From contig JAYRVH010000043.1 of the NCBI GenBank assembly GCA_041918615.1, positions 143,350 through 207,349 of the forward strand: DNA of 64,000 bases, written 5' to 3'. The notes beneath the pieces are model-generated. The model searched no databases. It was not told the origin of the DNA and worked only from the letters and a program-made list of their open reading frames with translations. Positions 2,409-19,350 of the stretch are shown piece after piece. The position numbers and the translations under genes were made by a program. This DNA comes from Acidimicrobiales bacterium. GTDB taxonomy: Bacteria; Actinomycetota; Acidimicrobiia; Acidimicrobiales; DATDAH01. The number at the start of each line of letters is the position of its first letter. Position 1 is the stretch's first letter.

Positions 2409-3983
2409 TCAGCCGCTGGCGCTGAGCGCGGTCCCGATCGCCGGGTACATCGCGGCAGCCACGGCCCGGGCGCCGTCCTCGTTGACGTGCACGACGTCTG
2501 ACAGCACCGGCCCGTCGAGGCCGTCGTAGGCGGTCGAGATGTCGATGGCCTCTGCGGGCAGCCGGTCGCGGATCCTCGCCCAGAGCGCCCGAATCGAATC
2601 GAAGACGAAGTCATCAGGGGACTGGGCATACACGAGTTCCTGTTCGCCCGGGTCGAGCGGCTCCCTCGAGTAGAGGTCGGGCTGCCAGAAGTGCACGACC
2701 CCGACGCCGTTGGCCGCGCCCAGGTCGTTCGCCAGTTCCACCCCTTGCCGATAGGTGTCGACCACGTTGCCGACCAGGTCGTCGAGAGGCAGGTCCCCCG
2801 CCAGGACCGGCGCGTCACCAGGCACCAGGGGCGAAGGCGGCGCCACACTGCCCCCGGGATTGAACTCGGCGTTGAACGCCGCTCGCAGCCGATTCGACTA
2901 GAGTTGGCCCGGCTCCCCGGCGATGTCGAGGTGGGCGATGGAGTTCAACATCTGCAACGCCGCGTCGTTGGTGCCGTCGTAGAACACCGCCAGGTCCGCC
3001 CGCTCGCCGGCCGCGAGCAGTTGGGCGAAGATCATCGTCTCCTGGTAGTTGGTCGCGCCGGGGCTGCCGTAGTTGCGGGCCCGGATCGGCCGGCCTTCGG
3101 CCTCGGCCAGCCGGACCACCTCGGAGGGGATCGTGTGCTCGTCGCGTTGCGCGTCGAAGCCGAACATCGTCGAGCCGCCGAAGAACCAGACGTCGAGCGG
3201 CTCGCCGGGAACGGCGGTCACATGGCTCCGCCGCACGCGGTTCTCCACATTGACGTAACGACCCTCGAAGTCACGGATCGAGCCCATCGTGGCAGGCGTG
3301 TACACCCCGCCTCCAGCAGCCGCCCCCAACTCAGGCATCGTCTCGGGGAGCCAGGGGAGGTCGCGTAGGGCCGCCGAATCGGCGGGCCCGAGCGTCGATG
3401 CGCCGGAGAACTCGGGAACGGGTGTCGAGCGCTTCTCGACCAGGCGGAATGCGCCGAAGAGCAGGGCCTGGACGGCGAGGACGGCCAGCACCGTACGGAC
3501 CGTCCGGGCCCGCTGCGAGCGACGCGTCGCGGGAGCGAGGATCGATCGCTCGTCGCCGTACGTTCGAAGGGGACGATCCACGTGCGACGTCGATCGGGCC
3601 TGCCACCCGCTCGCCCCGCTCGGGGGACCGAGCATGTCGACCCGAAGGAGCCGAAGAACCAGGCCGATCGGCGTCAGGATCAGGTAGTGGACCGGGAGCA
3701 GCAGGATCGTCGCGAGCCCCACGCCGACAGCGTGGGCCACCCGGTGCTGCACGGTCGCCAGGCGCCGGACGAAGGCATCGGAGACCATCGATGCCTGCGC
3801 GATCACCAGCGAGACGAGCACAGCCACCGCTGCGGCCCACAGTCGTCCCAGCACCGCCAGGACCAGGCCGACGACCAGCAGCCCGATCGCCGGCGCCAGC
3901 CGCTCCCTCAGCGACGGCGGCGCGGGCGGCAACACCGGATCCGCCCATCGGTGGCCCAGGGCCGGCTCGGCACCGGCAGTCAC
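2409..3983 (-). pseudogene. TM-anchored SGNH/GDSL-like hydrolase or acyltransferase, interrupted by one in-frame TAG (2898..2900). Paralog of 33657..35270.
   Basis: ORFs 2898..3983 and 2409..2846 are in the same frame and are separated only by a TAG. Joined, they align end to end with the intact paralog (FFGGSTMFG/FFGGSVMFG, RDEHTIPS, HFWQP/YFWQP, D-V-V-H). Confidence 0.7.
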
Positions 3984-4303
3984 GGGGCGGCCTCGTCGGC
4001 GGGAGGCCCCGCGACCCCGAGCTCATCGTGATACTGGCAGGCCACCACCACCTGGGCGTAGGTGCCCCACATCTGCTGGGGCACGTCGTCGGTCACGGGC
4101 GAAGCCAACATCCGCAACTGGGCGTCGGGGAAGTCGTCGAACAGGTATCCGCTCACGCAACTCGCCGTCGCCGGGGTGAAGCCCTCACGCTGGATGATTC
4201 CCGCCTCGAACTCGGCTCTCGTCATCGCCGTCTCCTGGTCGCCACCACCGCACCCGGCCGCGAGCAGCCCGACCGCGAGCAGTGCCACCAACGCGCGGGT
4301 CAC
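3980..4303 (-). CDS. Small lipoprotein (hypothetical)
   Basis: Signal peptide with a lipobox (LLAVGLLAAGCGGG). The stop overlaps the downstream gene start. The start codon is uncertain; the ORF extends to 4408. Confidence 0.55.
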   Translation of the reverse strand: MTRALVALLAVGLLAAGCGGGDQETAMTRAEFEAGIIQREGFTPATASCVSGYLFDDFPDAQLRMLASPVTDDVPQQMWGTYAQVVVACQYHDELGVAGPPADEAAP

Positions 4304-4487
4304 AGGCGCACCGACCGGGGCGATCGGGCCGTCGGGTCGTCCGAGCGGGCGATCCGCACCACCGGACGGAAGGGCCTCACCACGGCCCCGATCATGCCAC
4401 AGGCACACCTCGGTCAGATCGCGGGGGACACCCTCGCCGTCGCCATCGCAGCGATCGGCTGTCCTCCCTCTGGTCGCTACCCGGCCG

Positions 4488-5249
4488 TCACTTGGGGGGC
4501 ATCCGGATGCCGCCGTCGAGACGGACCGTCTCGCCGTTCAGGTAGCCGTTGGTGACGAGCTCGGTGGCCAGGGAGGCGAAGTCCGCCGGGGTGCCGAGGC
4601 GCTTGGGGAAGAGCACGCTCTGGCCCAGCGCCTCCTTCTGCGGATCGGGCAGCAGACCGAGGAGCGGCGTGTCGATGAGGCCAGGGGCGATGGTGTTCAC
4701 CCGTATGCCCACGGCGGCGAGGTCGCGGGCGATCGGCAGGGTCATGCCCACCACGCCACCCTTCGATGCCGAGTAGGACGCCTGGCCGATCTGGCCGTCG
4801 AAGGCAGCCACGGACGCGGTGTTGACGATCGCCCCCCGCTCGCCGAACTCGAGCGGCTGGGTGGCGCTCATGGCCGAGGCGGCGAGGCGGATGCAGTTGA
4901 ACGTGCCGATCAGGTTCACGGACACGACCTTCTCGAACACCCCGAGGTCGTGGGGCGCACCGCTGCGATCGACCGTTCGCTGCGCCCACCCGATGCCGGC
5001 GCAGTTCACCAGGACCCGCAGCGGGCCCATCTCGACGGCGGCGTCGACGGCGGCCTGCACCTCGTCGGGGTTGGTGACGTCGGCGTGCACGAACGCCCCG
5101 CCGACCTCCTTCGCCAAGGGCTCACCCTTGTCGTCCGCCATGTCGAGCACCACCACATGGGCGCCCCGCCCGGCCAGCTGCCGGGTGGTCGCCTCACCGA
5201 GCCCGGAGGCGCCTCCGGTGACGATTGCCGAAACTCCGTCGATGTCCAT
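4488..5249 (-). CDS. SDR-family 3-hydroxyacyl-CoA dehydrogenase (type II / HSD10-like)
   Basis: 253 aa with TGGASGLG cofactor motif, YSASK catalytic motif and C-terminal NGETVRLDGG. Confidence 0.9.
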   Translation of the reverse strand: MDIDGVSAIVTGGASGLGEATTRQLAGRGAHVVVLDMADDKGEPLAKEVGGAFVHADVTNPDEVQAAVDAAVEMGPLRVLVNCAGIGWAQRTVDRSGAPHDLGVFEKVVSVNLIGTFNCIRLAASAMSATQPLEFGERGAIVNTASVAAFDGQIGQASYSASKGGVVGMTLPIARDLAAVGIRVNTIAPGLIDTPLLGLLPDPQKEALGQSVLFPKRLGTPADFASLATELVTNGYLNGETVRLDGGIRMPPK

Positions 5250-5357
5250 CTGTCGACACTAGGCAGCCCTCTCGACCGCGGTCGAAACGGCCCGCCGGGG
5301 TCGACCCCACCCTGACATGCGAGGCGCAGCTGGCTGTCCGCGGCCGGAGCGCCAGGG

Positions 5358-5738
5358 TCACGGGTCCGGGGTCGGCGCGCCCCAGGCGCCGCCGCCGGGG
5401 GTGAGCATCCTGGGCACATCGCCGGCCATCGACCGCAACGTGCATTTGTCGCCCAGGCGCTCGGCTCGGGCCTCGTCGCCGCTCGGCAACAGCCAGTTCT
5501 CTCCGACTGCTCCGGGTCCGCCGCCGGCCAAGCCCCAGGGCTGGCTCACCCGGCGCTCGGTGATCAGGCTGATCGTCACATTCTCCAGCATCAGCAGGTC
5601 ACGCTCGATGCCCTCACCACCAGGTGCCCTCCCGGCGCCGCCGCTCCCCCGCCGCAGCCGGTAGCGAAGCACCCGCATTGGATACGCCCGCTCCAGCGCC
5701 TCGATGGGCGTGTGGAGCGTGTTGGTGAGCTCCGACAA
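5358..5738 (-). pseudogene. hyuB 3'-terminal fragment, copy A. The frame is intact, and this is the most diverged copy.
   Basis: Translates as SELTNTLHTPIEALERAYPMRVLRYRLRRGSGGAG...ITERRVSQPWGLAGG...MLTPGGGAWG, collinear with the last 122 codons of hyuB (10022..10389). The upstream gene body is absent. Confidence 0.85.
5718..5728 (-). repeat. Degenerate copy of the 11-nt boundary core (minus strand TCACCAACACG)
   Basis: Lies at the upstream edge of fragment A, in the same position as the cores at 7351, 9339 and 10451. Confidence 0.5.
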
Positions 5739-5792
5739 TGCGGCACAGCGGTGGCCGGCCGACCCGGACGCAAATCGCGGTCCTCACGAGTC

Positions 5793-6938
5793 CTATTCGT
5801 CGCCCCGAGGCAGCTCGCGCTGAGCGTCGAGCGCGGCGTGCTCGCGGAGGTACTCGCGGAGGTAGGGCATCGTGTAGTCGACTTGTCCATGGCCGACCGG
5901 CTCGATGAGCTCGGTCGCAATCAAGCGCAGCCGATACTGGCTCGCGTAGTTGCCGTCGACGTCCAGCCTTGCAGCGATGTCGCTCATCCGTGAGGGGCCA
6001 TTGTCATGTGCCATGGCGAGGAGGAAGGTGCGGGCGACCCCGGGCAGGTCTGCGATGGCTGGTTCGTGGACGAGCGAGCCGAGCCGGCGACGGGCGGCGA
6101 CGACCCCAGCGTTGACATCGTCGGCTGAGACCTGCTTGTGGCGGGGTTGTTGGCGCCAGATGTGGTATCCGACCAGCTGGATCAGGAACGGGTAGCCGCT
6201 CGTCGCCTCAGCGGCTCGCAGCGCGAGCTCATCAGAGATCTTGCGGCCGGTTCGTTCGATGGGGTCCTGGATCGCGATCGACACCTCGTCGAGCGACACC
6301 CGCCCGAGCGAGTGGCGATCGGCCCGTCTCAGGAAGGTGAGAACGTCGTCATTGAGGACGGCGCTCACCGCTGAGGGGAGACCCGCACCGGCGAACATCA
6401 TCTCCCGTTCTTCCCGCACGAGGTGCTGGAGGACTGAAGCCAGCTCACGAAATTCGTCGACCTGGTGGTGATGAACCTCGTCGAGCGTGAGGAGCAGGCC
6501 GGCGCCCGACTCGGACAGCAATTCGCATGCTGCCGTGGTCTGCGTACGAAGGGCGGGGACCATCCGATGCGACTCGTCTGTCGTCCACGAGGCACCGCCG
6601 AGGCCCATCGGCACGTTGATACCGGTCAACGTGGACTTGGTGCCCTCTGGATCGATCTCGCGCAGCAGGCCCGGAAGGTGCTCACTCACCAGCCGTGTCA
6701 CGAATCCAGGAGTCGCCGTCTCGGAGATGACCCGCCAGCCCTGCTGGCGGGCAAGATCCTCCACCTCGTTCAGCATCACCGTCTTTCCTGTCCCGCGAGC
6801 ACCCGTGTACAGCGTCACCCGCCCGGGGGCCCCAGGGCCGTCCTCGAGCCCAGCGGCGAAGTCATCGAGCAGTTCGGATCGTCCGACGAGCAACGGTGGG
6901 GACACACCGAACGTGGGAGTGAACGGGTTGCGTGCCAC
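5793..6938 (-). CDS. AAA/STAND-type ATP-binding protein with a C-terminal winged-helix-like domain (ATPase_2 / Orc1-Cdc6-like)
   Basis: 381 aa. Walker A GARGTGKT, Walker B LLLTLDEVH, and a C-terminal region (MSDIAARLDVDGNYASQYRLRLI) resembling a wHTH. GTG start. Confidence 0.8.
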   Translation of the reverse strand: MARNPFTPTFGVSPPLLVGRSELLDDFAAGLEDGPGAPGRVTLYTGARGTGKTVMLNEVEDLARQQGWRVISETATPGFVTRLVSEHLPGLLREIDPEGTKSTLTGINVPMGLGGASWTTDESHRMVPALRTQTTAACELLSESGAGLLLTLDEVHHHQVDEFRELASVLQHLVREEREMMFAGAGLPSAVSAVLNDDVLTFLRRADRHSLGRVSLDEVSIAIQDPIERTGRKISDELALRAAEATSGYPFLIQLVGYHIWRQQPRHKQVSADDVNAGVVAARRRLGSLVHEPAIADLPGVARTFLLAMAHDNGPSRMSDIAARLDVDGNYASQYRLRLIATELIEPVGHGQVDYTMPYLREYLREHAALDAQRELPRGDE

Positions 6939-6963
6939 GACGGCCAGCGTAACCGAGGGCCCG

Positions 6964-6998
6964 GTTAGAGGTCGTTAGATTTGTTAGAGATTGTTAGA
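6964..6998. promoter_or_regulatory. Four phased direct repeats of GTTAGA (TCTAAC on the minus strand) in an AT-rich patch
   Basis: GTTAGA occurs at 6964, 6974, 6983 and 6993 (spacing 10/9/10 nt). This is 26-60 nt upstream of the ATPase start at 6938 and begins where hyuB homology of copy B ends. Confidence 0.5.
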
Positions 6999-7361
6999 CA
7001 TCGGAGGGTAACCCCATCCGCCGCCGCATGGAGTCAGCATCCGGGCGACGTCGCCGGCCTTCAGGTCGATCGTGCACTTGTCCGGCAGGCGCTCCGCCCG
7101 ATCCTCGTCGCCGCCAGGGAGCAGCCAGTTCTCTCCGACGGCGCCGGGTTCGCCCCCCGCCAGGCCCCAGGGCTGGCTCACACGCCGCTCGGTGATCAGC
7201 GACACGGTGGCGTCGATCAGCACCTGCAGATCGCGCTTCGATCCTCTCGCCACCCGGCGCCCACCCAGCGCCGCCGCTCCCCTGCCGCAGCCGGTAGCGC
7301 AGCACCCGCAGAGGGAACGCTCGCTCCAGCGCCTCGATCGGGGTGTTCTTGGTGTTGGTCA
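6984..7361 (-). pseudogene. hyuB 3'-terminal fragment, copy B (frameshifted)
   Basis: Two overlapping frames give LTNTKNTPIEALERAFPLRVLRYRLRQGSGGAG... and ...DLQVLIDATVSLITERRVSQPWGLAGGEPGAVGENWLLPGG...GGGWG. There is a 1-nt indel near 7240. The last codons (YPPMSNNL) are replaced by the GTTAGA element. Confidence 0.85.
7351..7361 (-). repeat. 11-nt boundary core TGACCAACACC (minus strand)
   Basis: The plus strand reads ggtgttggtca, identical to 9339..9349 and 10451..10461. Homology to hyuB starts here. Confidence 0.6.
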
Positions 7362-7403
7362 ACCGTGTCGGCACCGCTGAGGGTGATCGCCGGAGACTCG
7401 GTC

Positions 7404-8663
7404 TCACCGAGGGTTGGCGCTCCACAGCGCGGCGATGGGCACGGCGGCGATTCGCTCGCTGAGTGGGAAGGCCCTCGGTCCTGTGTGGAGGACCGCTCCC
7501 GAGAGGAACCGTTCACCGAGGCGGTCTCGTAGCCATTCGAGGTGCGCGGCGTCTCGACGAGCCGGCGAGGCCGAAGCCTTCACCTCCACGGCTACGACAC
7601 GATCGCCCCCGAGCTCGGCAAGGAGATCGATCTCGTGGCGACCGTTCTTCTCGCGCAGGTGGAACAGCCGGGGGCGTCGAGCGCTCACCTCGATCTCAGG
7701 TCTGAGCTGTGCTGCGACGAACGTGTCGAGCACGCGGCCCATGAGGTCGCCGTCCCGCATCACGGTGGCTTCGTCGAGCCGCAATGCCGCGCCGACGAGC
7801 GATGCGTCACTGAGGTATCGCTTGGGTGTCTTCACCAAGCGCGAGAGCCGATTCGTCAGCCAGGCGGGGACGACGTCGAGTACGAAGAGGTTCGTGAGGA
7901 GGCGCTCGTACGCGAGGGCGGTCTTCCGGTCGATGCCGGCGGCCTCATAGATCGTCGAGTCCGCAACGATCCCTGCCGAGTTGAGCGCCAGGACCTCGAA
8001 GTACCGGGCGATCCGCGCCGGGTCCCGGCCAGAGAGTTCGACCGCGTCTCGAGTGAGGATCTGTTCGAGGTAGCTCTCGAGCCATCGATCACGTTCGCGA
8101 CCATCGAGCCGCAATCTCGCGTCAGGGAAGCCGCCGCTGAGGGCCAGACCGATGTATCCCGGGAGGTCTGGTGCTGGATCAGGGTGGCCGAGGGCCATGG
8201 CATCGCCCTCGGCCAACACATCGATCGGATTCGACGCGCGCGTGCCGGCAGCGATCTCGCGCTCGATCAAGCTGTGGATGCTCAGTCGGACGAGGCGCCC
8301 GGTTCCTGGCCAGGTCTGCGCATCGAGATCAGCTCTCACACTTCCCGTGAGTAGGAAACGCCCGGGTCGGGGGTCGTCATCAACGGCACGCTTGACGGCC
8401 CCGAGAACCTCCGGCACCGCCTGCCATTCGTCGAGCAGCACAGGCTCCTCCACACGGACCAAGGCTGCATCTGGATCCGCTGCGAACGCCGCTGCCTCGG
8501 CCGGTCGATCGAGGCGGACGACGCTGGCTGCGTACCTGCGCGCGGTCGTGGTCTTCCCAGCGGCCCGCGGGCCGACCAGGAGAACGGCGGGGTGCGCCGC
8601 GAGGAGCCGTGGCAAGTCCTCGTCGACCAAGCGTCGGACGTAGGAGGTGGCCACATCCCGCAC
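7404..8663 (-). CDS. AAA-family ATPase with a DUF4143-type C-terminal domain
   Basis: 419 aa. Walker A GPRAAGKTT, Walker B VLLDEWQ, and a C-terminal nuclease-like/DUF4143 signature (EIDLLAELGGDRVVAVEVKAS). Confidence 0.85.
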   Translation of the reverse strand: MRDVATSYVRRLVDEDLPRLLAAHPAVLLVGPRAAGKTTTARRYAASVVRLDRPAEAAAFAADPDAALVRVEEPVLLDEWQAVPEVLGAVKRAVDDDPRPGRFLLTGSVRADLDAQTWPGTGRLVRLSIHSLIEREIAAGTRASNPIDVLAEGDAMALGHPDPAPDLPGYIGLALSGGFPDARLRLDGRERDRWLESYLEQILTRDAVELSGRDPARIARYFEVLALNSAGIVADSTIYEAAGIDRKTALAYERLLTNLFVLDVVPAWLTNRLSRLVKTPKRYLSDASLVGAALRLDEATVMRDGDLMGRVLDTFVAAQLRPEIEVSARRPRLFHLREKNGRHEIDLLAELGGDRVVAVEVKASASPARRDAAHLEWLRDRLGERFLSGAVLHTGPRAFPLSERIAAVPIAALWSANPR

Positions 8664-9050
8664 GATACCACTCTGGACCCATCCTCGTTCCCGATTGAGA
8701 CCACCTGTTCTTCCTGATCAAGACCACTATGGGATCCCTATCTCGACCAACCCTCCGCGTGGCGCTGGGCCGTGCTGCCCGCCAGCTACTGCGGGACTCC
8801 GCCGGGTGACGCGCCCCCGGCGCTCGCCCCCATCGGGGCATCGGTCTGTTCAGTCATTCCTCTCCCGTTACCACCGTCCCGCGATCTCTGCGCAACTGGA
8901 GGGGTTCCCTCTGCGGAATTGGACGGTGGTCTCCTGCGGTACCGGACCTGCCTCGGAACTCACGAGTGCAGCAGTTGGCCCCAACCGCCGCCGTCGGGCG
9001 CCAGCTTCCGGAGGACGTCGCCAGCCTTGAGGTCGATCGTGCACTTGTCC

Positions 9051-9094
9051 GGCAGGCGCTCGGCCCTCGCCTGGCAGGCGCTCGGCCCTCGCCT
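9051..9094. repeat. Perfect 22-bp tandem duplication (ggcaggcgctcggccctcgcct x2)
   Basis: Read directly from the sequence. The other three hyuB 3' copies carry a single unit. 22 nt is not a multiple of 3, so it causes a frameshift. Confidence 0.9.
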
Positions 9095-9338
9095 CGTCGC
9101 CGCCCGGTAGGAGCCAGTTCTCGCCGACCGCTCCCGGCTCGCCGCCAGCCAGGCCCCAGGGTTGGCTCACGCGACGCTCGGTGATCAGCGACACGGTGGC
9201 GTCAACGAGCACCTGGAGATCGCGCTCGATCCCCTCGCCAACCGACGCCAGACCAGCGCCGCCGCTCCCCTGCCGAAGCCGGTAGCGCAGTACCCGCAGT
9301 GGGAACGCCCGCTCCAGCGCCTCGATCGGCGTGTTCTT

Positions 9339-9349
9339 GGTGTTGGTCA
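9339..9349 (-). repeat. 11-nt boundary core TGACCAACACC (minus strand)
   Basis: Lies at the upstream edge of fragment C, 23 nt downstream of the vapC stop. Confidence 0.6.
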
Positions 9350-9372
9350 ACACGCTCCACGCGCTGCACCGG

Positions 9373-9756
9373 TCAGCGGCGAACGACGGTGACCGTGCAC
9401 CGAGGTCCGGGAGCGAGCGCAAGGCGCGCATCGGCGGTGACGAGCGGCACCTCCAGCGCCTCAGCTACAGCGACGTAGGTCGCGTCGTAGGCACTGACAT
9501 TGTCACGCAACTCCCAGATGCGGGCGAGCAGGCCGCTCACACCCACTCGCTCGATTCCAAGTTGCGCCCACGTGTCAACGGCCCGCCAAGCATCGTCGGT
9601 CTCGACCTCGCCTCGCAGGACCTGAGCACGCAACGCTTGCACCACCTCGGAATCGGCCAGGTGAGGACAGGCGACCGAACCTTCGCGAAGCCTCGCTCTG
9701 GCATCACCGTCGTTGAGCAGCCCGAGCACCGCTGCTGATGCGTCGATCACGATCAC
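9373..9756 (-). CDS. vapC: PIN-domain toxin VapC
   Basis: 127 aa with N-terminal MIVIDASA and the acidic residues typical of PIN domains (YDATYVAVAE, LVTAD). There is a 4-nt overlap with the upstream antitoxin ORF. Confidence 0.85.
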   Translation of the reverse strand: MIVIDASAAVLGLLNDGDARARLREGSVACPHLADSEVVQALRAQVLRGEVETDDAWRAVDTWAQLGIERVGVSGLLARIWELRDNVSAYDATYVAVAEALEVPLVTADARLALAPGPRCTVTVVRR

Positions 9757-9974
9757 CGCTCAGCGCGCCCAACCTCGATGTCCCTCACGATGGCCGCGGC
9801 CTCCACACCCAGGTCGGGAAGTTGCGCCAGCAACGCGGGATTGGCATCCCGGCGCGCGATGAGTGCCAACTCCCGCGTGGCGTACGCCGAGACCGACAGG
9901 CCCTCGCGGGCAGCCAGACGTTCGAGCCGCTCGCCGACTTCGTCGGGCACGTTCCGAAGGTAGAGAGTCTTCAT
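9753..9974 (-). CDS. vapB: RHH/FitA-like antitoxin (VapB-type)
   Basis: The last 73 codons of ORF 9753..11300 read MKTLYLRNVPDEVGERLERLAAREGLSVSAYATREL..., typical of FitA/StbC-type antitoxins. The rest of that ORF is antisense to hyuB. An alternative start lies ~18-21 nt upstream. Confidence 0.75.
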   Translation of the reverse strand: MKTLYLRNVPDEVGERLERLAAREGLSVSAYATRELALIARRDANPALLAQLPDLGVEAAAIVRDIEVGRAER

Positions 9975-9982
9975 GTCGCAGA

Positions 9983-9992
9983 ATGCTAGCAT
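9983..9992. promoter_or_regulatory. Perfect 10-bp palindrome ATGCTAGCAT just upstream of vapB (candidate operator)
   Basis: Read directly from the sequence. It lies in the 47-nt gap between the hyuB stop and the vapB start. Confidence 0.35.
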
Positions 9993-10021
9993 CATCCTTT
10001 CAATCTGCGACAGTGGGGCGC

Positions 10022-11647
10022 TCACGACGACGGGGGCTCGCCCCAGCCGCCGCCACCCGGCGTCAGCATCCGCAGGACGTCGCCGGCCTTGAGCTGGATC
10101 GTGCACTTGTCGGCCAGGCGCTCGGCCCTGCTCTCGCCACCTCCCGGCAGGAGCCAGTTCTCCCCCACCGCTCCGGGCTCGCCGCCGGCCAAGCCCCAGG
10201 GCTGGCTCACCCGCCGCTCGGTGATCAGGGACACGGTGGCGTCGACGAGCACCTGGAGATCCCGCTCGATCCCCTCGCCACCCGACGCCAAACCCGCTCC
10301 GCCACTCCCCTGCCGCAACCGATAGCGCAGCACCCGCAGCGGGAATGCTCGCTCGAGCGCCTCGATCGGGGTGTTCTTCGTATTTGTCATGTTCGTGTGG
10401 ATTCCCGACTGGCCCGGCACACCCGCCACGGACTGGTGTCCTTCGTCGACGGTGTTGGTCATGGCAGTGGGCACGCCGCTCATGCCGTCCCGGCCGGGCC
10501 GGGCGCCCTGACCGCCACCGACGGTCTCGTAGTAGACCCACGCGCCGGCGCCCCCGACGCCCTCCCCGCCCACGAGCAGGTTGTTCATCGTGCCCTGGGA
10601 GGCGGCCGGCACGCGGCCTGGGAGGGCCTGGGCGAGGGCCCCGAGGCACACATCGGCGACCCGTTGGCTCACCTCCACGTTGCCCGCCCCCACTGCCGCC
10701 GGCGACCGGGCCGCGACCACCGTGCCCAGTGGCGCGACGACCGTGACCGGCCGCATGGCGCCGCCGTTGGCCGGGATCGTGGGGTCGGTCACCGAGCGGA
10801 GGGCGAAGCCCACGGCCGAGGCCGTGACCGCCTCGACGGCGTTCACGTTCCCTCGGCGCTGGGTACCGGTGCCCGTGAAGTCGAACGTCACCTCGTCGCC
10901 CGCGACCGTGAGGGTGACCACGACCGGCGTCGGCACCTGCTGCTCGGCGGACGGGCCGAAGGAGTCGAGCACATCCGCGAATCGCCAGGTGCCGTCGGGC
11001 ACCTGCGCGATGGCCGCACGCGCCCGGCGCTCGCCGTAGTCGAGCACCTCGTCGAGCGGCGCACCGGTCAGCGCCGCCAGGCCGGCGGCACCGACCACGT
11101 TGGCCCCGATCTGGGCGTCCAGGTCGCCGGCACGCTCCGCCGGCGTGCGCGAGTTGGCCAGGAGCACCGTCCGGACGCCCGGGTCGAGCACGACGGGCGG
11201 AAGTCGCAGGCCCTCCTGGAAGATCTCGACGGCATCGGCCGGAAGCGAGCCGGGGGCGCCACCGCCGACATCGGCGTGGTGGGCGCGGTTGGCCACCCAT
11301 CCCACCAGACGGGCTCCGGCGAACACCGGTGCCACGAGGGTCAGGTCGTTCAGGTGGGTGCCACCGGCGAAGGGGTCGTTGAGGATCACCTGATCACCGG
11401 CACCCAGGTTGTCACCGAAGACGGCGATGGCCGCAGCGACCGACGCCGGCATCGACCCGAGATGCACGGGTATGTGCTCCGCCTGCACCAGCAACTCGCC
11501 GGTGGCCGTGAACAGGGCGGCCGAGCAGTCGGCCCGCTCCTTGATGTTGGGACTGAACGCAGCCCGCCGGAGAACGGCCCCCATCTCCTCGGCGACCGCC
11601 GTGAGCCGTGAGATCAGCACCTGGAGCGAGGCGGCGTCGAGGCTCAC
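10022..11647 (-). CDS. hyuB: Hydantoinase B / oxoprolinase family protein
   Basis: Family motifs are present (NIKERADCSAALF, NDPFAGGTHLNDL, HTNMTNTKNTPIEALE). A GTG start at 11647 overlaps the hyuA stop (GTGA). The ORF track extends to 11710. Confidence 0.9.
   Translation of the reverse strand: MSLDAASLQVLISRLTAVAEEMGAVLRRAAFSPNIKERADCSAALFTATGELLVQAEHIPVHLGSMPASVAAAIAVFGDNLGAGDQVILNDPFAGGTHLNDLTLVAPVFAGARLVGWVANRAHHADVGGGAPGSLPADAVEIFQEGLRLPPVVLDPGVRTVLLANSRTPAERAGDLDAQIGANVVGAAGLAALTGAPLDEVLDYGERRARAAIAQVPDGTWRFADVLDSFGPSAEQQVPTPVVVTLTVAGDEVTFDFTGTGTQRRGNVNAVEAVTASAVGFALRSVTDPTIPANGGAMRPVTVVAPLGTVVAARSPAAVGAGNVEVSQRVADVCLGALAQALPGRVPAASQGTMNNLLVGGEGVGGAGAWVYYETVGGGQGARPGRDGMSGVPTAMTNTVDEGHQSVAGVPGQSGIHTNMTNTKNTPIEALERAFPLRVLRYRLRQGSGGAGLASGGEGIERDLQVLVDATVSLITERRVSQPWGLAGGEPGAVGENWLLPGGGESRAERLADKCTIQLKAGDVLRMLTPGGGGWGEPPSS
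10451..10461 (-). repeat. 11-nt core TGACCAACACC inside functional hyuB (first MTNT)
   Basis: Identical to the cores heading fragments B and C. A degenerate second copy (TGACAAATACG) lies at 10379..10389. Confidence 0.6.
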
Positions 11648-13452
11648 CGGGCGCCTCTCGCTCCCCGCACGAGGCGCAGGGCACCCGCTGCGCCGGGCTC
11701 GGCGCGCCACCCCTCGGGCAGCCAGATGGTGGTGTCAGCCTCCACGATCGATCCCGGGCCGACCGCGCCGCGTCGAGAGGGCACGGGGAGGTCGATCACG
11801 TCGACCGGGGCGGGGCGTCGCGCGGTGGCCCGCATCGCCACCACCTCGACCGGTGTGCCGGGACGGGCGTAGCCGTTGCGCCGCTCGTGCTCGGCCGGAA
11901 ACGCCGCCACGTCGGGCACCGACAGCTCGTGGGCCTGACCGGCGTAGCGACAGTCGACGAGCCGCTCGACCGTCACCCCCTCCCCACCGAGGGCCGCAGC
12001 CGCCTCTTCCGCGAGTGCATCCAGTGCGGCCTCGAGCCCGTCCCTTCCCGCCGGGGCCGGCCACGAGCGCACCAGATCGTGCTGGCGGGGGCTGGCCATC
12101 ACACCGACCGCCGACAGGACCCCGGCCCGGGCCGGCACCAGCACGGTTCCGACCCCGAGGGCATCGGCCAGGGCGCACGCGTGGAGCGGGCCCGCTCCCC
12201 CGAAGGCGACGAGCGCGCCGTCCCGTGGATCGACCCCGCGGCCAACCGACACCGTCCGCAACGCCCGCTCCATGGCCGCGTCGACCACCGCCAGCACCCC
12301 CTCCGCGGCAGCGCGCGCACTCCCAAGCCCGAGCCGCGAGAGGGCCGCCTCGGCGCTCGCGAGATCGAGCCGGCCGAGACCAGGAAGCTCGACGTCGGGC
12401 GGGAGACGGCCCGCCACCAGATCCGCGTCGGTCACGGTGGGCAACCGACCGCCACGGCCGTAGCAGGCTGGGCCGGGGTCGGCCCCCGCGCTGGCCGGGC
12501 CGACGACCAGCGCACCACCCGGATCGACCCGTGCAACGGAGCCGCCCCCGGCCCCGATGGTGTGGACGTCGAGCGACGGGACCCGGACGGGGAGGCCCGC
12601 GACCTCCCGTTGGGCCGCCGGAGCCGGCCGCCCGTCGAGCACAAGGCACACATCGGTGCTCGTGCCACCCATGTCGAAGCTGAGCGCCGCAGGGAACCCG
12701 TTGGCCTCGGCCACGGAGGCGGCGGCCTGTGCCCCACCGGCAGGACCCGAGAGCAGCAGGAGTGCGGGCCGGGCCGCCGCCTCCCCGACGGGGATGAGCC
12801 CGCCCGCCGACGTCATCACCAGCACCTCTCCCGCCAGGTCGGCGAGGGCCCCCAGGTAGCGACCGCAGGAGGGTCGCAGGTAGGCGTTCATCACCGTCGT
12901 CACCGTCCGCTCGTACTCGCGGAACTCGGGGGCCACCTCATGGGACGCGCTCACGTCGTGGCCCGCCTCCCGCAACTGCCCGGCCACCCACCGCTCGTGA
13001 TCCGACGCCAGGTCGGCGTGGAGCAGGCACACGGCCACGGCGTCCACGTCATCAGGCAACACGGGGACGACACCGGGCGCCTCGGTCTCAACACCGCGGT
13101 GATCGATCCGCCCGGCCACCTCGTAGCGCCGGCCACGGGGTACCAGCGGCTCGGGCCGGTCGATCCAGGGGTCGTAGAGCGAGGGCCGGTTCTGACGGCC
13201 GATCTCGATGACGTCGGCGAAACCAGCGGTGGTCACGAGGGCCACCGCGGCACCCGACCGCTCGAGGAGCGCATTGGTCGCGACCGTGGTCCCGTGGGCG
13301 AGCGAGCCCGGAAGCAGGCCACCACCCATCCGGTGGACGCCCTCGCGCACGGCGGCCGAAGGCTCCTCCGGCGTCGAAAGCACCTTCAGGGTGGCCCCAC
13401 CCTCGGTGACCAGATCGGTGAAGGTCCCACCCGCGTCAGAGCCGACTCGCAC
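11644..13452 (-). CDS. hyuA: Hydantoinase A / oxoprolinase family protein
   Basis: 602 aa with N-terminal MRVGSDAGGTFTD, plus FDMGGTSTDV and HTIGAGGGS motifs. Translationally coupled to hyuB. Confidence 0.9.
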   Translation of the reverse strand: MRVGSDAGGTFTDLVTEGGATLKVLSTPEEPSAAVREGVHRMGGGLLPGSLAHGTTVATNALLERSGAAVALVTTAGFADVIEIGRQNRPSLYDPWIDRPEPLVPRGRRYEVAGRIDHRGVETEAPGVVPVLPDDVDAVAVCLLHADLASDHERWVAGQLREAGHDVSASHEVAPEFREYERTVTTVMNAYLRPSCGRYLGALADLAGEVLVMTSAGGLIPVGEAAARPALLLLSGPAGGAQAAASVAEANGFPAALSFDMGGTSTDVCLVLDGRPAPAAQREVAGLPVRVPSLDVHTIGAGGGSVARVDPGGALVVGPASAGADPGPACYGRGGRLPTVTDADLVAGRLPPDVELPGLGRLDLASAEAALSRLGLGSARAAAEGVLAVVDAAMERALRTVSVGRGVDPRDGALVAFGGAGPLHACALADALGVGTVLVPARAGVLSAVGVMASPRQHDLVRSWPAPAGRDGLEAALDALAEEAAAALGGEGVTVERLVDCRYAGQAHELSVPDVAAFPAEHERRNGYARPGTPVEVVAMRATARRPAPVDVIDLPVPSRRGAVGPGSIVEADTTIWLPEGWRAEPGAAGALRLVRGARGAR

Positions 13453-18573: not shown

Positions 18574-19350
18574 CTACGCGCTCGATGCGGCCGGGAGCGT
18601 GTGCTTCTGGCGATCCAACCAACCGAGGAGGACGGCCACGGCGCGGGGATCGTGACGGAGCTGGTGGCCCGCCCCGCCCACGAACCGGAGTTCCGCTGAC
18701 CCGTGGGCGTCGGCCAACAAGCGAGCGTCGAAGTCGGGGACCACCTCGTCCAGCGAGCCGTGCATCACCAGCAGCGGGCGGGGGGCCAGTTGTGCCGCGC
18801 AGTCGAGGGGGCGGATCGCCTTGAGCTGGCGAGACCAGACGTCCACGGATTCGGGCCAGTCCGGATCATCGATCACACCCACCTCACGTGCGTGCGCCAG
18901 CAGGCGGGCCGGCCGCCGGGCCCAATCGTCGAAGTCGGCGGGCGCCCCGATCGAGGCCACCCCCGCGATGCGAGGGTCGACGGCACCCGCACAGATGCCG
19001 AGTGCCCCACCGGTGCCGAACCCGGCGCACCACACCCCGTCCGCCGCCTGGTCGCGCCCGAGGTGGTCGACGGCGGCTCGCAGGTCGTCCAGCCACCCCT
19101 GGAGCGAGAACTGCCCCTCCGACGGGCGGCAGCCCCGGAGGTTGAAGGCGAGCACCACCCATCCGAGCTCGGTGGCGATCCGGTCGGCGAGCTGGGGATA
19201 GGTGTGCGCCGACTTGGGGCCGCCGCCGACGCCCGCCGGGAAGCCATGGAGCAGGGCCAGGCCCGGAAGCCCTCGGCCGTCGGACGCGTTCGGCGGCAGT
19301 GCCAGGTGCGCCGCCAGTTTGAGGTTGCCCGAGCGGAAGCGGTGCTCCAC
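18574..19350 (-). CDS. Alpha/beta hydrolase
   Basis: 258 aa. Nucleophile elbow-like GFGTGG, plus a late His (GAGHQL). Confidence 0.8.
   Translation of the reverse strand: MEHRFRSGNLKLAAHLALPPNASDGRGLPGLALLHGFPAGVGGGPKSAHTYPQLADRIATELGWVVLAFNLRGCRPSEGQFSLQGWLDDLRAAVDHLGRDQAADGVWCAGFGTGGALGICAGAVDPRIAGVASIGAPADFDDWARRPARLLAHAREVGVIDDPDWPESVDVWSRQLKAIRPLDCAAQLAPRPLLVMHGSLDEVVPDFDARLLADAHGSAELRFVGGAGHQLRHDPRAVAVLLGWLDRQKHTLPAASSA

Follow-up and report, generated by a model that had tools for sequence, protein, structure and literature searches.

The window analysed here, a 64-kb stretch of the Acidimicrobiales contig JAYRVH010000043.1, carries a hyuB gene whose last ~370 nt occur in four direct copies, with a small gene module between each copy and the next. 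We propose that a conserved site in hyuB, encoding the residues MTNT, serves a clade of mobilizable elements with a large serine recombinase (LSR) as their chromosomal attachment site (attB), and that the array consists of accreted mini-elements that have no recombinase of their own; we put the probability of this reading at roughly 0.78. Taken at the level of sequence, we can establish the repeats and their common boundary, the LSR elements at this boundary in relatives, the LSR-type geometry of the attachment (att) sites, a divergence of the copies under purifying selection and a presence/absence polymorphism.

In the mechanism that we envisage, integrative mobilizable elements of an Acidimicrobiia clade would integrate by their LSR into the conserved MTNT codons, which lie some 370 nt before the hyuB end, with strand exchange at the AC inside ATG-AC-CAAC. 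Behind its P' arm, the incoming element would bring a short linker, a synonymously recoded target motif and a replacement for the last ~120 hyuB codons. After integration hyuB would remain readable with an in-frame 24-aa scar, and the old 3' end would be shifted downstream and then decay. Repeated integration would stack elements, with the newest beside the gene body, and the three stacked units of the window would be mini-elements without recombinase or transfer genes, each holding one toxin-antitoxin or defence-type module.

Four copies of the hyuB end

The hyuB gene (10022-11710; Hydantoinase_B, Pfam PF02538, E 5e-180, with the domain split into two stretches) lies on the minus strand, as do all four repeats and all cargo of the array. 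A repeat search and a MAFFT alignment delimited the four copies as the in-gene 3' end (10022-10390) and the displaced ends C (8960-9347), B (about 6984-7359) and A (5358-5726). In a tblastn search with the HyuB C-terminus, all four were matched at E 1e-42 to 1e-84, which excludes chance, and their pairwise identity is only 78-85%. Copy C contains a perfect 22-bp tandem duplication (9051-9094, Tandem Repeats Finder) and copy B one extra A near 7237, while copy A, the most divergent of the four, is an intact ORF (open reading frame) of 126 aa. The peptide TPIEALERAFPLRVLRYRLRQGSGGAG is identical in the in-gene copy, in C and in frame-repaired B, and reads TPIEALERAYPMRVLRYRLRRGSGGAG in copy A. 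Likewise, an 11-nt core, TGACCAACACC, is found at 10451-10461, 9339-9349 and 7351-7361, and copy A has CTCACCAACACG.

The intervals are occupied by a 1.1-kb unit with a vapB-like ribbon-helix-helix (RHH) antitoxin gene (9753-9974; Pfam FitA-like_RHH/RHH_5) and a vapC-like PIN toxin gene (9373-9756), a 2.0-kb unit with the gene of an AAA_14 + DUF4143 ATPase (7404-8663), and a 1.6-kb unit with that of an AAA_16 (STAND/Orc-like) ATPase (5793-6938). The downstream chromosomal flank of the array is a short-chain dehydrogenase (SDR) gene (4488-5249; Pfam adh_short). The first-pass annotation of the window had already described the four direct copies, the peptide identity with A as the outlier, the 1-nt indel of B, the 22-bp duplication of C and the three same-strand modules; repeat search, MAFFT, tblastn, translations, Tandem Repeats Finder and Pfam agree with it on each of these counts. 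With the newest unit beside the gene body, the insertions would have followed one another in the order AAA_16, DUF4143 and vapBC.

The proposed crossover point and the attachment sites

Do the displaced copies share a boundary? We compared the window with 80 of 532 confirmed hyuB relatives (81 loci with the window; L numbers denote loci, further ones having been added by later searches). In the window and in about ten other loci (L003, L019, L037, L042, L056, L059, L074, L076 and L090), the displaced copies begin at the (G/C)AC of the MTNT codons, and what precedes the AC is a GTTG-type sequence that does not belong to hyuB; in copy A of the window, the AC (5725-5726) follows GCTC. The boundaries of all displaced copies thus coincide at this dinucleotide, in line with the earlier proposal of successive site-specific insertions into one hyuB target. 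The 11-nt core from which that proposal started is present at three sites, but most of it is conserved coding sequence and the real boundary is the AC inside it; the core is best read as the AC crossover together with conserved MTNT codons that were present in both partners.

The same AC is the symmetry centre of the attP sites that we reconstructed for the element of L059 and for the vapBC unit of the window. Joining the right and left element ends of L059 yields GGTAGTCAA-N10-GTTG-AC-CAAC-N10-TTGACTACC, i.e. two 23-nt inverted arms, complementary at 16 of 23 positions, around a non-palindromic AC, and the attP arms of L081 are complementary around AC at 14 of 23. In the window, the proposed crossover dinucleotide of attL lies at 10458-10459 on the minus strand, inside ATG-AC-CAACACC. 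It is followed by the P' arm, CAACACCGTCGACGAAGGACACC (10435-10457), which forms the first part of the scar described below and has homologues in the scars of 13/81 loci and in L085. The right-end (P-type) arm of the vapBC unit is GGTGCAGCGCGTGGAGCGTGTTG (9348-9370), after which comes the AC at 9346-9347. These two arms are complementary at 15 of 23 positions, where chance gives a mean of 6.7 and P(>=15) is about 1e-4, and the junction expected of a circular vapBC unit is ...GTGGAGCGTGTTG-AC-CAACACCGTCGACGAAGG....

Right arms adjacent to LSR genes are 23 nt long in six of seven cases (L059, L081, L082, L083, L092 and L094) and 22 nt long in L090. Their register, GG.. at -23 and GTT(G/C) beside the AC, is matched by the vapBC right arm (GTTG at -4). 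The right-end arm of the DUF4143 unit, CCTCAGCGGTGCCGACACGGTTG (7360-7382, then AC at 7358-7359), is homologous to the arms of L019 and L037. Read by eye, its motif (GGTGTCC...GTTG, then AC) is placed nearer the centre, with an attB-like spacing. Also by eye, GG(C/T)GT-type motifs stand at -18 in the B arm of hyuB as compared with -23 in P arms (5-7 nt nearer the AC), and the P' arm of the window equals the native B' arm with a 7-nt insert (CAACACC, GTCGACG, then AAGGACACC, as against CAACACC-AAGAACACC).

Serine integrases act on attP half-sites of ~25 bp with a non-palindromic central dinucleotide that sets polarity, and their distal (zinc-ribbon) motif lies nearer the centre in attB than in attP, by 5 bp for the Listeria integrase (PMC3783163); the motif positions read by eye would be consistent with this spacing. 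The att anatomy of L059, L081 and the vapBC unit, as deduced from these reconstructions, is of the typical LSR type.

An in-frame scar in hyuB

At the in-gene junction, the target codons for MTNT (ATGACCAACACC, 10451-10462) are followed, after exactly 60 nt, by a recoded MTNT block (ATGACAAATACG, 10379-10390), the two blocks delimiting a scar region at 10379-10462 on the minus strand. HyuB carries here an in-frame insertion of 24 aa (a 72-nt scar), and Pfam splits its Hydantoinase_B domain in two; the translation reads ...GMSGVPTAMTNT-VDEGHQSVAGVPGQSGIHTN-MTNTKNTPIE..., with SGVPTAMTNT before VDEGHQSVAGVPGQSGIHTN. The in-gene copy is indeed in frame with the gene body, as first annotated, but the join is not a clean one, and the scar had been overlooked.

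Insertions of this kind were found in the hyuB genes of 13/81 loci, in three sequence types and with a spacing of exactly 60 nt between the MTNT blocks every time. They are built of the P' arm, a linker and a second target copy (PGQSGIHTxMTNT) that runs into the replacement end. The codon after the AC is the native ACC in 1/13 scars, compared with 48/62 unscarred genes (Fisher p = 4e-6). The second MTNT block uses codons that are rare for a 70%-GC genome (ACA/ACT/ACG, often AAT), five scars having AAT instead of AAC; equivalent recoded blocks lie, e.g., in L003 (~11264), L019 (~11297) and L059 (~3991). The scar type of the window recurs in L085, in an element that carries an LSR. We infer that the hyuB gene of the window is a chimera of the resident body, the 72-nt scar and an end like the replacement ends borne by elements, and that this in-gene 3' end was brought by the vapBC unit.

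Could the recoded second block protect an element against further insertion? We rejected such a self-immunity, since LSR elements have entered recoded sites (L059, L090) and a second block (L087); immunity from recoding would be at best partial. In L087 (2740-2900), a type-I scar is followed directly after its second MTNT block by a type-II P' arm, ATGACGAACACAAGTCAAGTAGCTACCGGTC. From this double scar, integration into an element-borne target copy must have occurred. Past the double scar the hyuB end is largely missing, and an AAA_16 gene begins that is cut after about 40 codons; a HipA/HTH module lies upstream. A third scar type (GTTGCTGATGTACTCCAGTC...) is present in the hyuB of L004 and L006 (~11180-11260), where the genes downstream are ordinary ones (adenylate cyclase, hemerythrin, catalase) and neither a displaced end nor an LSR was found within 10 kb. 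Thus, scars can evidently outlive their elements, and those of L004 and L006 look like relics.

Large serine recombinase elements at the same site

Which enzyme acts at this site? In L059, two hyuB ends lie 7.5 kb apart, and between them are genes for a TrwC relaxase, a TIR protein of ThsB type and an LSR of 468 aa with Resolvase, Recombinase and Zn_ribbon_recom domains. The LSR start codon and the displaced hyuB end are 15 nt apart. A search with this LSR gave 290 homologues at E <= 1e-30. All of the homologue contexts that we fetched, in which the identity to the L059 protein reaches down to about 50%, adjoin a Hydantoinase_B fragment (L081, a contig of L042; L082; L083/84; L090/91; L092; L094/95), and there, as in L059, the distance between the LSR gene and the displaced hyuB end ranges from a few nt to about 100 nt. 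In L093, an LSR as in L092 stands at the edge of a second contig. One of these contexts, L082, is another assembly of Salinilacustrithrix flava, the finished chromosome of which (L039) has a scarred hyuB.

All of the distinct elements examined at this site (8/8) carry an LSR. They measure 7.5 to over 12 kb, half of them (4/8) encode a TrwC relaxase, and most have defence genes (ThsB, restriction-modification (RM), AbiE, pP_pnuc_1). A pattern search for the scar type of the window led to L085, where a 12.5-kb element starts with the scarred hyuB end and encodes pP_pnuc_1, TrwC, a type IIG RM enzyme and an AAA_13/21 ATPase; the LSR at its far end is cut by the contig end. The first-pass annotation had held that a trans-acting enzyme or an undescribed cassette-type mechanism would be needed; the eight related elements with an LSR abutting the displaced hyuB end make such an undescribed mechanism unnecessary. 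By extension, an LSR would also have made the junctions of the window.

We also considered an island of the kind that tyrosine recombinases insert at gene 3' ends, and rejected it, since only LSRs are found beside the att site in the examined elements. None of these elements contains a tyrosine recombinase, and none was found near scarless arrays or scarred genes without an array (L074, L011, L001, L004, L006 and L052).

The full LSR elements at hyuB amount to small defence islands; those of L083/84, L085, L090 and L001 hold genes for pP_pnuc_1, ThsB-TIR, type IIG RM, AbiEi/AbiEii, a DAC-domain protein and DUF4365, and also for a SMODS protein and a PLD-SNF2 helicase.

Arrays, empty sites and alternative cargo in relatives

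Is the array a variable trait of this position? The HyuB protein places the window in the Acidimicrobiales, with a best relative at 81% identity. Extra hyuB ends follow the gene in 8/80 related loci (L003, L011, L019, L037, L042, L059, L074 and L076), L056 keeps a 20-nt remnant of a hyuB end, and L090 and L098 are two further array loci, while 62/81 loci have a plain, unscarred hyuB site. The nearest relative, L009 (HyuB body 85% aa, SDR 90%), has neither array nor scar, and L048 is an empty site, with an uninterrupted hyuB, 322 nt and then the SDR gene. An empty site of this form and different cargo at the same position were what the first-pass annotation had suggested looking for, and both were found. 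Together, they show a presence/absence polymorphism and alternative cargo at one position.

Most units between copies in relatives hold a single gene. DUF4143 ATPases stand between hyuB ends in L003 (twice), L042/L081, L059 and L074, AAA_16 ATPases are found in L019, L012, L098 and L087, and vapBC in L056, L074 and L090. In these last three, the vapB-like antitoxin is 75-88% identical in aa and lies in a hyuB array each time, and the PIN homologues adjoin hyuB ends. L074 repeats the order of the window, vapBC-copy-DUF4143-copy, at ~70-75% aa identity. Homologues of the AAA_16 protein are found in hyuB arrays (L098) and also away from hyuB, one of them beside an RM methylase gene.

The array itself is reproduced by an independent data set. 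Contig L088 (CXWK01000557.1, from another metagenome) aligns with window positions 14241-7714 at 99.0% identity and has the order hyuB-scar-vapBC-C-DUF4143, so that this part is, by comparison of the two assemblies, not an assembly artefact. The two assemblies agree in gene order from hyuB to the DUF4143 gene; the coverage of L088 ends before B, the AAA_16 gene and A. L088 lacks the 22-bp duplication (site ~5140), which must thus have arisen very recently, at strain level, in a copy that is displaced and unselected.

Two further loci bear on the dynamics of such arrays. In L089 (1524 nt), TTG-AC links a type-I scar (...ggtgtccataccgTTGACCAACATCGTCAACGAAGGACACC...) to the right arm of an AAA_16 unit of the L019 type, a junction that fits an excised circle and two scarred units in tandem equally well. 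L089 and L086 come from one metagenome, and both contigs break at a common point inside the hyuB end. In L081 (~18909-18913, corresponding to L042 11972-11990), the stop codon of a DUF4143 gene is 3 nt from the GTG-AC junction of a scar-bearing hyuB copy, and the two scars of L042 differ at 1 of 60 positions.

Age and history of the copies

We calculated dN/dS after repair of the indels in B and C. Between pairs of copies, dN/dS is 0.12-0.25 and dS 0.46-0.84, i.e. the differences are mainly synonymous; for the in-gene end against the others the ratio is 0.12-0.18, and for C against B, which are both displaced, 0.18. A duplication in situ followed by decay would give the displaced copies a ratio near 1 and is thus disfavoured. 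Judging from the ratios, the copies diverged while each still terminated a functioning gene, and their displacement is fairly recent.

Did each unit bring its own hyuB end, as first proposed? For B and the AAA_16 gene, this is directly supported. The best match of copy B is the in-gene end of L012 (83.5% nt), which immediately precedes an AAA_16 homologue (92% aa, compared with 70% for HyuB), and L087 keeps a B-type end-of-gene sequence and TCTAAC repeats before its AAA_16 homologue. From these matches, copy B and the AAA_16 gene appear to have travelled together, and they form the sole unit with direct support for an own hyuB end. For the vapBC and DUF4143 units, a comparison with relatives gave no support for co-transfer with the upstream copy.

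Evidence against the model and alternative explanations

Several observations weigh against the accretion of LSR mini-elements. Neither the array, as noted in the first annotation, nor the rest of the 64-kb window contains an LSR or other recombinase, as judged by tblastn with the L059 LSR, by a profile of 80 LSR homologues run against ORFs of >=60 aa and by Pfam on ~60 ORFs; the enzyme is taken from relatives, and the window ORFs outside the array are housekeeping genes. Arms resembling attP on both sides are seen only in the vapBC unit, the DUF4143 and AAA_16 units having right arms that are degenerate or of attB-like spacing. In L081 and L090, the arms of the mini-units do not look like the P arm of the LSR element with which they share an array, and we have therefore dropped a mobilisation in trans by that element. 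Copies C and B are scarless, which requires either a type of element that leaves no scar or a loss of the scar between the two MTNT blocks; we infer that they lost the scar or never had one. In L042 and L089, on the other hand, displaced copies keep their scar, which is harder to reconcile with attP × attB recombination than with homologous recombination or a tandem duplication and suggests that homologous recombination between hyuB ends also reshapes arrays.

The tests for a foreign origin gave little. The difference in GC at third codon positions (GC3) between gene body and 3' end is no greater in scarred than in scarless genes (p = 0.24; window hyuB body 0.90, 3' end 0.89). The hyuB body is clearly closest to L009 (85% aa, the others 76% or less), yet none of the four ends is closest to the L009 end (ranks 5-9 of 85), in a region that is short and conserved. 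Composition and nearest neighbours thus identify neither the in-gene end as foreign nor A as native. Moreover, the dS of cargo between genomes is as high as that of hyuB (0.6-1.4, near saturation and compressed by GC3 bias), and the units would therefore be old, at which depth vertical inheritance with loss and an old transfer are not separable.

Could the mini-units nevertheless be live, i.e. non-autonomous cassettes that are excised as circles and reinserted at hyuB by an LSR acting in trans, in an integron-like array? Discrete blocks do recur (vapBC in the window, L056, L074 and L090; AAA_16 in the window, L012, L087 and L098; DUF4143 in six loci), the P and P' arms of the vapBC unit are as good as those of LSR-bearing elements, and the sequence right arm-AC-scar of L089 is the junction expected of a circle. 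However, L089 can equally be two tandem units as in L042, and its contig runs straight through, without sign of a minor circular form. The arm mismatch in L081 and L090, the degenerate arms of the older units and a cargo dS that shows no sign of recent spread likewise speak against activity, and no near-identical cassette occurs in another hyuB background, the best AAA_16 match being 92% aa. We regard live cassettes as unlikely, though not negligibly so. Growth of the array without any site-specific recombination, either by homologous (Campbell-type) integration of circles with a hyuB fragment or by unequal crossing-over and duplication, would find 370-440 nt of homology to recombine. It would account for displaced copies that retain a scar, as in L042 (59/60 identical scars) and L089. 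Also in its favour, attL is not a normal LSR substrate (PMC3783163). It leaves unexplained, however, why copies in about 10 genomes share a start dinucleotide after GTTG-type non-hyuB sequence and why the arms show inverted symmetry, and duplication in situ predicts neutral divergence, whereas C against B gives a dN/dS of 0.18. Such recombination may add to arrays but cannot found them, and as an explanation of the array we consider it improbable.

A homing-type selfish gene is a further candidate, since DUF4143 ATPases are the commonest cargo and the target is a highly conserved motif. DUF4143 is reportedly placed in the PD-(D/E)XK superfamily in a survey's listing, and the ATPase, with this predicted nuclease domain, would then cut the MTNT site. 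Yet units with only vapBC or only AAA_16 have identical boundaries, arrays without DUF4143 exist in L019, L056 and L090, homing replaces sequence and does not stack duplicated ends, the family matches a defence candidate (see below), and LSR elements account for the site, all of which makes homing very improbable. Hardly more credible is an assembly artefact, in which the metagenome assembler would have collapsed or chained hyuB ends from different strains, even though the source appears to be an uncultured Acidimicrobiales genome and repeats of ~370 nt can mislead short-read assemblers: L088 gives hyuB-scar-vapBC-C-DUF4143 at 99% in another data set, similar arrays are present in many assemblies including Mb-scale contigs (L098), the finished Salinilacustrithrix flava chromosome has a scarred hyuB and its other assembly an LSR beside the displaced end, and copies of 78-85% identity are too divergent for k-mer chaining.

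Relation to known systems

The stacking of elements that lack a recombinase has been described before, as accretion of cis-mobilizable elements (CIMEs; PMC5704250) and as pseudo-SCC cassettes (PMC6243372), and the locus is a fresh example of a known process, not of the new mechanism that had been suspected. CIMEs, known from ICESt1-type elements, have no integration or transfer genes, keep attL and attR and are stacked by later site-specific integrations (PMC5704250). The units of the window resemble them in that they are bounded by att-type sites, have no integration or transfer genes (Pfam found only RHH, PIN, AAA_14 + DUF4143 and AAA_16 in the ORFs of the array) and share their att site with related autonomous elements. 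We found no intermediate between a full element and a mini-unit that would document a CIME-like origin by decay. The CIME cases described mostly rely on tyrosine integrases that act at tRNA genes or at the 3' ends of genes, and a newcomer inserts at the att site containing the gene end. At hyuB, in contrast, the enzyme of the relatives is an LSR, the target lies inside the gene, ~120 codons before its stop, the units measure only 1.1-2.0 kb, and the newcomer would enter beside the gene body and supply a new gene end of 370 nt.

In pseudo-SCC elements (SCC, staphylococcal cassette chromosome), cassettes without ccr stand in tandem in composite islands at rlmH (orfX), bounded by direct repeats (PMC6243372), and SCC cargo comprises RM and other accessory genes (PMC6243372; 10.1101/336396). 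Common to both systems are a serine recombinase (Ccr in SCC), a single insertion site towards the 3' end of a conserved gene and tandem cassettes devoid of a recombinase; target (hyuB), host phylum (with Acidimicrobiia here) and probably recombinase clade differ, and the likeness would be one of analogy only. The SCC site lies at the extreme end of orfX, where few codons are replaced and no scar is left, in contrast to about 120 replaced codons and a 24-aa insertion here. By analogy, the units would fit the CIME accretion model and also resemble pseudo-SCC cassettes handled by serine recombinases.

Some prophages and islands carry a replacement 3' end for a protein gene; phage 21 and e14, for instance, enter icd of E. 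coli inside the coding region and bring a substitute gene end by which the gene stays functional, the old end becoming a pseudogene. They use tyrosine integrases, their attP and attB have an identity segment in common, and as a rule they are inserted singly, unlike the LSR-type site, the scar with its recoded target copy and the multi-unit arrays at hyuB. With integrons the array shares short, mostly one-gene units in series on the same strand, none with a recombinase, and toxin-antitoxin cassettes; unlike there, the repeat is a 370-nt coding fragment of hyuB, and the enzyme of the relatives is a serine recombinase on mobilizable elements. Neither the ~60 window ORFs nor the surroundings of the relatives' arrays yielded an IntI/Phage_integrase protein, and the repeat ends are not attC hairpins; without an IntI tyrosine recombinase and attI/attC sites, we rejected an integron.

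What could make this site of wider interest? The elements appear to be an undescribed family of serine-recombinase mobilizable elements in the Acidimicrobiia, a poorly studied and mostly uncultured group, and their exact site in hyuB can be given; a literature search on serine recombinase and hydantoinase returned nothing relevant. The design is unusual in that an internal, catalytically conserved motif would be targeted and the gene kept by ~120 replacement codons and a recoded target copy. Genes of defence and toxin-antitoxin type accumulate at the site (vapBC, PDC-S01, AAA_16 ATPases, ThsB, RM, AbiE, CBASS-like), which may thus be a handy anchor for mining defence genes in metagenomes, and natural attB/attP pairs of a new LSR clade may interest genome engineers. 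If the cassettes were live, each a circle with one gene, a hyuB end and attP, moved by an LSR in trans, they would be a serine-recombinase counterpart of the integron, and the interior of a housekeeping gene would be a capture site.

Cargo genes and minor features of the array

The RHH match of the antitoxin is below the Pfam cut-off (E 1e-5) and the PIN match above it, and the two genes overlap by 4 nt; the pair has the gene layout of a predicted VapBC toxin-antitoxin system. The DUF4143 ATPase matches the PADLOC model PDC-S01 at E 1.4e-103 over profile positions 10-420 of 422 and is thus a candidate for this defence system. The GC content of the cargo is 0.64-0.69, compared with 0.75 in the hyuB body, and its GC3 0.77-0.79, compared with about 0.9, a difference that speaks for the proposed model. 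An Rfam search of window positions 4000-12000 gave no family match.

Copy B and the AAA_16 gene are separated by TCTAAC-type, AT-rich 10-nt repeats (6964-6998 on the minus strand, Tandem Repeats Finder; period about 10, 3.6 copies), which also precede the homologous AAA_16 gene in L087 (~2950-3010). Their conservation there suggests a possible role as operator or promoter of the AAA_16 unit. The 300 nt that separate copy C from the DUF4143 start contain, upstream of that gene, two GGTCT(T/C)(G/A)ATC motifs ~20 nt apart (8690-8740, minus strand; noted by eye), a pair that may likewise be an operator.

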